Shown here in pieces: positions 25,971 to 30,281 of a stretch of DNA of 64,000 nucleotides. Origin of the DNA: an uncultured Chthonomonadaceae bacterium (GTDB lineage: Bacteria; Armatimonadota; Chthonomonadetes; Chthonomonadales; Chthonomonadaceae); NCBI GenBank assembly GCA_963835065.1, contig CAWIEK010000049.1, forward strand, positions 32,001 to 96,000, in the 5' to 3' direction. Made by a program: the position numbers and the translations under genes. The notes under the pieces are model-generated. The model did not search any database. It was not told the origin of the DNA and saw only the letters and a program-made list of their open reading frames with translations. Position 1 is the stretch's first letter, and every line of letters starts with the position of its first letter.

Positions 25971-26206
25971 GCCGCGCTCCGAATACCGGTTAAGTGTGAA
26001 AAGCGCATTCAGAAAGTGAAAAGAGTGTTCCTCTCCTCTCTTAATGCTACGCTTGTCCTTTAACGCTTACGTGATTGGCGCGAGAATGTCAGCAGGGGAT
26101 GATGCAATAGGAGGTATTCAGGTGTTCGGGTATTCAGGTGTTCAGGTGTTCGGTATTCGGTATTGGGATACAGGTAATTGGTGGGTGGAGGTTGAGGGTG
26201 GATGTG

Positions 26207-26250
26207 AAAAGCGGCGCGGATGTGTTTCTGCAACGCATCCGTGCCGCTTA
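26207..26250. terminator. 18-bp hairpin (terminator or structured RNA, strand ambiguous)
   Basis: aagcggcgcggatgtgtt-tctgc-aacgcatccgtgccgctt; G-U pairs favour the plus strand, the U tail favours the minus strand. Confidence 0.45.
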
Positions 26251-26389
26251 AAAGGGCAGCCCCTGCTTCCTACGTTCATGGCGGGAGAACCGGTGAGCAA
26301 CGCCTATCGAGGAGACGCGGGAGGACAGAGGTATGTTCCCAAAATATGACTAATTATGTAGGAAAGGAATATGGCATAGAGGAATTGGT

Positions 26390-28138: not shown

Positions 28139-28245
28139 GGAAATGGTGATCCTTTTTTATGCTTGTTCAAATTATTTGCAGGCGGGCGTACTTATATGTT
28201 CGGCGTGAAGGCTAAGGATTTGGAGAGAATGAAACGGGTGAACGT

Positions 28246-28283
28246 AAAAATGCGCCAATGGGAATAGATTTCCCATTGGCGCA
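28246..28283 (-). terminator. Intrinsic terminator of the RNA ligase unit
   Basis: Minus strand tgcgccaatgggaa-atcta-ttcccattggcgca followed by ttttt, about 20 nt after the ligase stop. Confidence 0.85.
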
Positions 28284-28303
28284 ATAGCATACAGAACATC
28301 CTC

Positions 28304-29359
28304 TTAAACGTCGTGGGTATCCCTGTCTGCGCTTTTGGAGAACAGGTAGGCGTCGCCGATGTACTTCATCGCTACGCGGCCTACCTTTGGGTTGACACGC
28401 TCCACAACCGGCTTCACCACCACGCCTTCGCGGATGTGATTATCATCCAGCGTGGTGCTGCCTTCCGACAGCGCCTTGATGGTGTTCAGGTCGAAAGGGC
28501 CGCGATACAGCAGGGGCACGGTTGCAACGCCGTGTCGGGCGCAAAGAGTGGCAAACTCGTCCGCGTCCAGGTACTTGCCGTCCACAAGCAGATCGAAGGC
28601 GCGAAAGCCCAGCGTTCCCCGGCAGCCGTAATGCAGGTCTTGAATTTTCGAGCCGAACACTTCGCCGAACAAAATCACCTGCCGATGTTCCGCTCCCAAT
28701 TCTTCCAGCAGGGCGCGAACCGGCGGCTGCGAAAGCGGGAACCAGTATGTGCTGTTTGCCCACTGCTCCGTTTCTTCGGGCGGCTTGCGCCGAACGCTCA
28801 TGGAACCGGCCATCCATTCCCCTTCAATCAAAGCAACCCGGCAATTCGTTCCATGGAGCTTCTCGGTAACTGCCACTTCTTCGCCCTCGGTCAACACGTC
28901 CGGGAAGTTGCGCAGATTTTCAATGTCGGTGTATTCCACGAGCAGGGGATGCGGCGGCAGGGCATCTCCGGCAGTTGGCTTGAGCGGCGGGATGTACTTG
29001 GTGATGCCATAATAGGCTTTCACATCCTCGCCTTCCGCCCATTTGGGATTTTCCACGTCAATCAGGACGCCAAAGGACGGTTCGCCACGCAATCGGGCGC
29101 AACGGACGCGGCCTGCGGGCGGAACGGGCGCATCCGGCCCGGTTCGCACCGAAAGGTATTTGGTAATGCCCCACCGGTCGGCGTGTTCCAGCGGAATCAT
29201 GCTGTCAATGGGAATATACGTGACGAGGCTGCCGGCATGGTACTTGCCTTTGGGAACCACGCACTGCCAGCCCTTGATCTGACTCAACTCCAGCGCGTCC
29301 GCGTTGGCATGTGGCAGGACGCGCTCGATTTTGCATACTTCGACAATGCACTCAGACAT
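28304..29359 (-). CDS. ATP-dependent RNA ligase, DRB0094/Rnl2 family
   Basis: N-terminal HANADAL...GWQCVV module, motif I TEKLHGTN, FGEVFG, FRAFDL, REGVVVKP; ATG 29359 chosen because the longer ORF overlaps a tRNA. Confidence 0.9.
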   Translation of the reverse strand: MSECIVEVCKIERVLPHANADALELSQIKGWQCVVPKGKYHAGSLVTYIPIDSMIPLEHADRWGITKYLSVRTGPDAPVPPAGRVRCARLRGEPSFGVLIDVENPKWAEGEDVKAYYGITKYIPPLKPTAGDALPPHPLLVEYTDIENLRNFPDVLTEGEEVAVTEKLHGTNCRVALIEGEWMAGSMSVRRKPPEETEQWANSTYWFPLSQPPVRALLEELGAEHRQVILFGEVFGSKIQDLHYGCRGTLGFRAFDLLVDGKYLDADEFATLCARHGVATVPLLYRGPFDLNTIKALSEGSTTLDDNHIREGVVVKPVVERVNPKVGRVAMKYIGDAYLFSKSADRDTHDV

Positions 29360-29388
29360 GAATGTAGCCCTCTTCCCAGATCGTAATA

Positions 29389-29467
29389 TGAGAGTGGAGG
29401 GAATCGAACCCCCTTGCTTTCGCCACAAGGTTACAGCTTGCTGCCCGACCATTTAGGCTTCACTCTC
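29389..29467 (-). tRNA. tRNA-Tyr(GTA), atypical
   Basis: Manual fold: acceptor GAGAGTG/CACTCTC + A73, D stem GCCT/GGGC, anticodon arm GCAAG-CTGTAAC-CTTGT, 11-nt variable region, T arm GGGGG-TTCGATT-CCCTC; A8; no encoded CCA. Confidence 0.85.
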
Positions 29468-29470
29468 AAA

Positions 29471-29593
29471 ATTCAGGTATTCGGGTGTTCAGGTGTTCAG
29501 AATAATATGACAGTAATACGTTTGCTGCTGCGCAACTAGACTTGCAGTTTAGCTCCTGAATACCCGAACACCTGAACACCCGAATACCTGAAT
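29471..29593. repeat. Inverted octamer array pair separating the two tRNAs
   Basis: attcaggtattcgggtgttcaggtgttc (29471) versus gaacacctgaacacccgaatacctgaat (ending 29593). Confidence 0.85.
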
Positions 29594-29596
29594 GTA

Positions 29597-29671
29597 TGGA
29601 AGCGGTCGGAATCGAACCGACAACACGTACTTTGCAAAAGTACATCGCTGACCCTTAGGACATGCGCTCCC
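29597..29671 (-). tRNA. tRNA-Ala(TGC), atypical
   Basis: Manual fold: acceptor GGGAGCG/CGCTTCC with G3:U70 and A73, anticodon arm GTACT-TTTGCAA-AGTAC, T arm GTCGG-TTCGATT-CCGAC; C8 and a weak D stem; no encoded CCA. Confidence 0.85.
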
Positions 29672-29707
29672 GTATAGTTTGTTGATTACGTGACACTTCC
29701 TGAATGC

Positions 29708-29741
29708 AAAAATACAGCCCGGCCTGAGTTTCCAGACCGGG
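29708..29741 (-). terminator. Attenuator terminator upstream of the tRNAs
   Basis: Minus strand CCCGGTCTG-GAAACT-CAGGCCGGG-CTGTATTTTT. Confidence 0.78.
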
Positions 29742-29776
29742 ATGTGCATTGTCGTCATGGAAGAGACGATTCCGCG

Positions 29777-29899
29777 TTAAGACGGTGCTGGAAGGCACAA
29801 CGGTAATGTATATCCGGCGGCATACGCATAGCCGACGGCTTGCGCGTAAGCATAGCCGGTGCAGGCGAGATATGCGGTTGTGGCCGGTGTGGTGTTCAT
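29777..29899 (-). promoter_or_regulatory. Tyr/Ala-rich leader peptide ORF (40 aa) of a putative attenuator
   Basis: MNTTPATTAYLACTGYAYAQAVGYAYAAGYTLPLCLPAPS*, 6 Tyr and 10 Ala; purine-rich AAGCAAGAG before the ATG; its last codons are complementary to the terminator 5' arm. Confidence 0.78.
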
Positions 29900-30281
29900 G
29901 CTGCTCTTGCTTTTCAAAAGTTTGTCAAAAGTGATGATTACGTTGAAGCCGCTTGTAAAATGCGTTTACATCCTTTGCGCGCGTTCATATCCCTTGACAG
30001 CAGGTTGCCGCCCAAAGTTGCGTTGCCGCGAAAATTATTTCAGATGCGCTGACATTTTCCCATCCCGTCTTTGCTGCGTCAATGCTCTTCACGTTTTTCC
30101 TGCTTTCCGGGCGCGTACTCTGGTATAATGAACGAAAATCTCCATTTGCCATCAACAATACATCCTGAATACATCCTGCCGTTCGCGTAATTTCCTGCCG
30201 ACCTCGCGCCATACTGCCGAAAATAACAATGTTCCTCAATGCAACGCCTCCGCAGCCGACGCGCAAGGCGAGAAAACCCTG

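Follow-up and report, generated by a model that had tools for sequence, protein, structure and literature searches.

A tRNA–RNA ligase operon of Chthonomonadaceae with a candidate attenuator whose leader codons match its own tRNA genes

The 64,000-nucleotide window analysed here (an uncultured Chthonomonadaceae bacterium, contig CAWIEK010000049.1, positions 32,001 to 96,000) contains a short operon of two spare tRNA genes and an RNA ligase gene. This operon is likely to be gated by a ribosome-controlled attenuator with leader codons that correspond to the gated tRNAs, such that a shortage of tRNA-Tyr, and more weakly of tRNA-Ala, would switch it on. Across the phylum Armatimonadota, many spare-tRNA arrays and RtcB/Rnl genes lie behind this same switch. 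Comparative support is strong for Tyr and for the family as a whole; from it we infer the mechanism.

On the minus strand the operon runs from a promoter motif through a leader ORF, a terminator, tRNA-Ala, tRNA-Tyr and an Rnl5-family ligase to a final terminator-like hairpin of 14 bp with a U-tract (28245..28283, hairpin 28283-28251). The parts named in the first-pass annotation of this DNA were all found at their places and in the order given there; the promoter motif and the antiterminator strand described below are additional to that description. The motif (GCAACT-N16-TGTCA, minus strand, 29995..30021) lies 96 nt upstream of the leader, resembles promoters of ECF sigma factors, and is kept in a relative of the same genus (G002). 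With its spacing of 16, the motif occurs 14 times in the genome, against 0-5 times at 13 other spacings, and copies also precede rtcB, serS, tRNA genes and an ECF sigma gene, from which we infer a promoter function and a cognate sigma factor. Genome-wide, GCAACT-N16-GTCA stands ahead of rtcB, serS, a tRNA-Gln(UUG), an odd tRNA-Ser(UGA), an AAA ATPase, an ABC protein and the ECF sigma gene, a set that can be regarded as a candidate translation-stress regulon. The serS under the motif is not a duplicate, being the only serS match in the genome, and the sigma-70-like site at 30082-30054 does not exceed chance expectation. A promoter of the tRNAs' own downstream of the terminator had been raised as an objection to attenuation, and no promoter-like site was found between the leader terminator and the ligase.

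The leader ORF (29777..29899, minus strand) has 40 codons, six of them for Tyr and ten for Ala, behind a weak Shine-Dalgarno sequence. The Tyr codons are numbers 10, 16, 18, 24, 26 and 30, and the reported count of 14 Tyr or Ala among 22 residues is correct. Among 53,560 ATG-started small ORFs of 15-70 aa in the 8.0-Mb genome, whose long ORFs contain 2.6% Tyr and 11% Ala, it is the only one with at least six Tyr and at least 14 Tyr plus Ala in 22 residues. G002 has the whole series from promoter motif through leader, terminator, tRNA-Ala and tRNA-Tyr to ligase in unchanged order, and its leader retains start, stop and frame across a 3-nt (one-codon) deletion. Five of the six Tyr are kept there, two of them through synonymous changes, whereas about half of the Ala codons are changed. 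Ala accounts for 9 of 30 codons in the window leader (p=0.011, against leaders without Ala cargo) and 6 of 30 in that of G002 (p=0.18); five of the nine in the window are GCC, and the G002 leader has no GCG, the only codon that its cargo tRNA-Ala (CGC) reads. The proposal that the leader is enriched in both cargo amino acids thus survives clearly for Tyr, which is a conserved and solid signal, and weakly for Ala, which is not preferentially conserved and fails at the anticodon level in G002. A DNA search with the leader region over 401 genomes of the phylum, a sample with G002 outside it, returned only its own copy and three short weak hits.

Behind the leader lies an intrinsic-terminator-like hairpin with a U-tract (29708..29748, core 29741-29718, minus strand), whose 5' arm has a predicted alternative partner in leader codons 36-39. 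In the predicted fold of the nascent RNA, this antiterminator strand (29783..29793, minus strand), found in the same register in 11 aligned homologues, pairs as 29783-29793 with 29739-29730 (10 bp, one bulge). A small hairpin predicted inside the helix (29746..29775, minus strand) has a compensatory change in the G002 alignment. The antiterminator is predicted to form first, with the terminator taking over once its 3' arm is made, at energies of -22.8 versus -34.3 kcal/mol. When equilibrium folding was repeated with a ribosome placed codon by codon, the terminator had a probability of about 0.94 at every position; since it is favoured at equilibrium wherever the ribosome stands, switching would have to be kinetic.

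Both helices show covariation in the larger of two subfamilies: 30 Capsulimonadaceae-type switches have double-sided changes in 13 antiterminator and 29 terminator cells, a level reached by 0 of 500 shuffles, with the qualification that part of the 30 were found by a pattern demanding complementarity, which inflates the core pairing. In the 11 window-type switches the terminator covaries (97% of cells paired, seven double-sided changes), and the antiterminator core is invariant, with covariation not above shuffles (107 of 500). The leader-terminator duplex of the window is no stronger than those of codon-shuffled leaders (p=0.42), and only 3 of 17 leaders reach p<0.05 in this comparison. The stop codon, by contrast, is fixed 36-45 nt upstream of the terminator loop in 16 of the 17, while the peptides are poorly conserved in sequence and length.

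The leaders of the wider family carry the main evidence for a match between codons and cargo. From ligase loci, array homologues and pattern searches we collected 51 candidate switches, chosen by ligase or switch sequence and not by codon content; in 44 of them an ATG-started ORF ends 34-50 nt short of the pattern end. Seven were dropped for having no in-register ORF, among them two chance matches in genes and two leaders out of register with the switch (L020, L181), and four more for having less than 2.5 kb downstream, leaving 40 switches in 31 groups. Cargo tRNAs were called with ARAGORN, its threshold lowered, in the 2.5-6.5 kb of downstream DNA used for each switch; two arrays split by prophages had Ser added manually, and a later correction took out two false calls and put in one Lys. 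As the sensing region we took the 30 codons upstream of the antiterminator strand. Across the 31 groups, 16 of 20 amino acids are commoner in this region when the cognate tRNA is in the cargo, most clearly Tyr (18/18 groups with the tRNA versus 5/13 without), Lys (11/14 versus 1/17) and Met (6/6 versus 5/25); Phe, Gly, Thr and Val show no trend. Permutation within lineage and array size gave 77.2 against 12.1±10.3 in frame (p<1e-4), and no signal in the other two frames (p=0.65 and 0.11). The covariation persists without Tyr, without the window, in each subfamily alone, with 24 groups, and at other thresholds including the ARAGORN default (z about 5), and loses significance when coarse single-linkage clustering reduces the sample to 5 groups (p 0.16-0.33). 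Branch-disjoint pairs on trees of the switch region, which are weakly supported, were positive in 13 of 16 cases, with three ties and no negatives; a strict starred-branch independent-pairs test had only 1-2 pairs available. Matching at the level of individual codons is modest (134 versus 117 expected, z=2.75) and nil for Ala.

Paralogues within one genome offer the clearest comparison. Two switches of G053 with near-identical terminators precede a Trp-Tyr-Pro-Glu-Phe-Asn-Ser array and an Ala-His-Leu-Asp-Thr-Val-Lys-Gln-Arg-Cys array, and their leaders are complementary: residues specific to array 1 number 16 in leader 1 and 3 in leader 2, and those specific to array 2 number 13 and 22, respectively. 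A Pro+Met operon of G423 has 10 Pro or Met in 30 leader codons versus 3 in its paralogue; the G179 paralogues show no leader contrast. The comparative test proposed in the first-pass annotation has come out in its favour: related operons have conserved leaders, whose amino acids covary with the cargo tRNAs. We lean towards the broader reading that these leaders provide a self-indexing tRNA supply in the phylum, in which each operon leader is spelled in the codons of its own tRNAs and re-spelled as tRNAs are gained or lost, and the loss of tRNAs through starvation or a nuclease would induce their replacements together with repair enzymes. As a separate observation, three switches (L183 in G423, L194 in G250, L193 in G418) have a second terminator-like hairpin and ORF upstream of the leader, which suggests tandem attenuators.

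Both tRNAs of the window operon are spares, called by ARAGORN as tRNA-Ala(UGC) (29597..29671, minus strand) and tRNA-Tyr(GUA) (29388..29468, minus strand) in agreement with the identities first assigned; housekeeping Ala(UGC, GGC, CGC) genes and one Tyr(GUA) gene are present elsewhere in the genome. The tRNA-Ala has G3:U70, A73, an irregular D-arm and no encoded CCA, falls below the Rfam tRNA cut-off, and is identical at 72/75 nt to that of G002, whose anticodon is CGC. This odd isotype recurs in four other arrays. Reading it as a shifted tRNA-Cys is disallowed by the stem, and the G3:U70 pair recurs with UGC and CGC anticodons. The tRNA-Tyr has G1:C72, A73, a long variable arm and no encoded CCA, and differs from its G002 counterpart by a compensatory anticodon-stem change; at position 38 it has C where the housekeeping tRNA-Tyr has A. 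Among the arrays L081, L022, L037, L040 and L175, tRNA-Ile(UAU) is common, the leaders often use the rare ATA codon, and the tRNA-Tyr genes differ among themselves at positions 37-38. Other odd tRNA-like genes (Glu, Cys and one with an ACA anticodon) lie at G000:C19:1-333, C45:52300-52739 and C49:587868-587941, one of them behind the promoter motif and a 66-aa ORF. The two operon tRNAs are separated by a 123-bp palindromic repeat with 28-bp perfect arms (29471..29593, strand not assigned), which is not part of the switch; G002 has other sequence in its place. The repeat belongs to a family with many genome copies (393 BLAST pieces), often adjoining tRNA genes, and has another copy in the window at 26044-26349.

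The window operon holds two tRNAs, whereas homologous switches can be followed by as many as 26 called tRNAs. Trp-Ala-His-Tyr is the opening order of the G019 and G033 arrays, which share the odd tRNA-Ala of the window; in G053 and G058, Tyr stands close to the array head and the ligase lies within. On these grounds the operon would most simply be the cut-down head of a longer array, a 5' remnant whose leader may have been retuned to the two remaining tRNAs. The dedicated Tyr/Ala system envisaged at first thus gives way to a reduced member of a family of arrays. When 68 genomes were searched with array DNA, G001 and G002 were the only ones to yield true arrays. The window's own genome also has a 16-tRNA spare array (G000:C49:429807-432286; L069, L081) with its own 59-codon leader, antiterminator and terminator. 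At its tRNA-Phe it is disrupted by an element of about 15 kb that carries an integrase, and Phe and Ser(GCU) follow on the far side; the array lacks tRNA-Tyr, and its leader lacks Tyr.

The ligase (351 aa; 28304..29359, minus strand) has an N-terminal OB domain and an adenylyltransferase domain with a KLHG motif containing the KxxG lysine. It had been called "DRB0094/Rnl2-type": the DRB0094/Rnl5 half of that name is confirmed by TIGR02306 (192 bits, cut-off 151), and the Rnl2 half is not, at 34.6 bits against 197. Its closest relatives are titled Chthonomonadaceae and Capsulimonadaceae, and it is present in 9/61 relatives and in 24/401 genomes of the phylum, its own included. In G001, G013, G015 and G024 the ligase has no leader, so that the switch follows the tRNA arrays more closely than it follows the ligase. 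DraRnl (DR_B0094) shares the match to the Rnl5 model, the two domains and the catalytic lysine motif; it differs in lying in an operon with a putative exonuclease and in having a link to radiation recovery and no tRNA substrate reported (PMC5397189). The DRB0094 ligase family is described as enriched in tRNA-rich phages (PMC10879173).

Anticodon nucleases of the colicin/PrrC type leave a cyclic phosphate and a 5'-OH. Rnl5 seals 3'-OH/5'-phosphate nicks in duplexes (PMC5397189), and therefore would not seal such ends alone; end-healing would be needed. The description as a "repair ligase" accordingly holds for the RNA ligase and less well for the repair, and the enzyme might act with end-healing or other ligases encoded elsewhere. 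The genome contains an RtcB gene interrupted by an intron or intein and an Rnl1-like gene, and both types also occur inside related operons; a search with PNKP_ligase gave no match in this genome and none in any control either. The rtcB gene (G000:C7:25776-28023; L113, L114) has an insert of about 1 kb separating its GGG and NHF motifs, and this insert carries a homing-endonuclease-like frame out of register, which suggests a group I intron. The Rnl5 gene of G001 (L073) has an intein directly after the catalytic KxHG motif, and that of G002 (L077) has a transposase-like insertion near codon 48. Two identical-scoring Rnl1-like genes lie 2.8 kb apart at G000:C37:156490-160270 (L209, L210), either a tandem duplication or an assembly artefact.

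We can put these elements together in a proposal for how the operon is switched. A stress sigma factor would start transcription about 90 nt before the leader. A ribosome reaching the stop codon would cover codons 36-39, letting the terminator form and bring transcription to an end. Stalling at a Tyr codon, of which the last is six codons before the strand, would leave the antiterminator strand free; the antiterminator would then form before the 3' arm of the terminator is made, and RNA polymerase would read through. Leader-peptide attenuation of this kind needs coupled transcription and translation.

The predicted geometry does not by itself single out Tyr, as any stall before about codon 31 would leave the strand free. 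The switch could then be a general sensor of translation stress: any stall or failed initiation, whether from antibiotics, toxins or starvation, would free the strand, with the codon match as a secondary tuning of little effect on output. RtcB, RtcA-like and other operons in which no tRNA was detected also have this switch, the genes under the promoter motif form a broader set for translation and RNA repair, and the Anabaena trn array responds to ribosome-targeting antibiotics in general (PMC8421152). Such a sensor, however, gives no reason for the in-frame covariation with cargo, including that between paralogues within one genome, and we regard it as unlikely, though worth taking seriously.

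Codon-matched attenuation also has to be set against the dominance of the terminator at equilibrium, which would fit a terminator that is effectively constitutive, with the operon set by its promoter and leak-through and the ORF being a small peptide or a relic. In several relatives the promoter motif is followed immediately by the ligase or tRNA-Tyr, with no leader, and the two out-of-register leaders point the same way. Against it, the leader stop position is fixed although the peptides are poorly conserved, the antiterminator pairs covary in the larger subfamily, and leader composition follows cargo; we consider this reading very improbable. Still less probable, in our judgement, is an artefactual covariation, produced by shared ancestry, base composition or faulty tRNA calls. 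The leaders are homologous within the two subfamilies, coarse clustering removes significance, false and missed tRNA calls were found, and the downstream DNA is limited; yet the signal is absent from the other two frames and withstands the subsets, the default ARAGORN threshold and the comparison of paralogues.

Leader-peptide transcription attenuators are well known, for example trpL, pheL and thrL, and in the antibiotic-sensing uORF attenuators of vmlR and hflXr, ribosome stalling on the uORF gives readthrough into translation-rescue genes. There the signal is a drug and not a codon-specific tRNA supply, and the cargo is not known to include tRNAs. Classical attenuators resemble the switch predicted for the window in a short uORF with control codons, an antiterminator strand under the translating ribosome and a mutually exclusive terminator; they gate genes of amino-acid biosynthesis or tRNA synthetases, whereas here the cargo is tRNA genes and RNA ligases. 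The Armatimonadota leaders are also unlike them in being long (39-90 codons), in probably sensing several amino acids and in being apparently re-spelled as arrays gain or lose tRNAs. The cysS leader of Deinococcus deserti is another leader-peptide attenuator (PMC4007540). At the window locus there is no T-box match in Rfam at gathering or at E<=10 and no match to an Rfam leader family; the predicted switch would thus work like the leader-peptide attenuator class and lies outside its described families.

The closest likeness in cargo is the trn operon of Anabaena PCC 7120 and the related L-arrays, which also place supernumerary tRNAs beside a full housekeeping set and are co-regulated with rtcB and induced under translational stress (PMC8421152, PMC10272220). 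That operon is described there as controlled by the TrcR repressor, whereas the window has two tRNAs, an Rnl5 ligase, an RNA switch and an ECF-like motif; 'leader' and 'attenuat' have 0 occurrences in the main texts of the two papers. By the definition of an L-array or cryptic trn operon, the window tRNAs are supernumerary and do not form a long tandem array. Leader-peptide attenuation (textbook knowledge) and stress-induced spare arrays under a repressor in Anabaena are already known, and a search of literature with incomplete coverage found no description of tRNA genes under a codon-matched leader-peptide attenuator.

Genes for tRNAs are usually taken as promoter-controlled. A codon-matched attenuator, if true, would be a direct feedback from tRNA supply to tRNA synthesis and would explain how silent spare arrays outside cyanobacteria sense when to turn on. 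The leader would then predict which shortage induces which operon, making the purpose of the arrays testable, and would be a readable record of the tRNAs under attack. The two-tRNA operon of the window would be the simplest test object, and such leaders could report tRNA-cutting toxins in cells.
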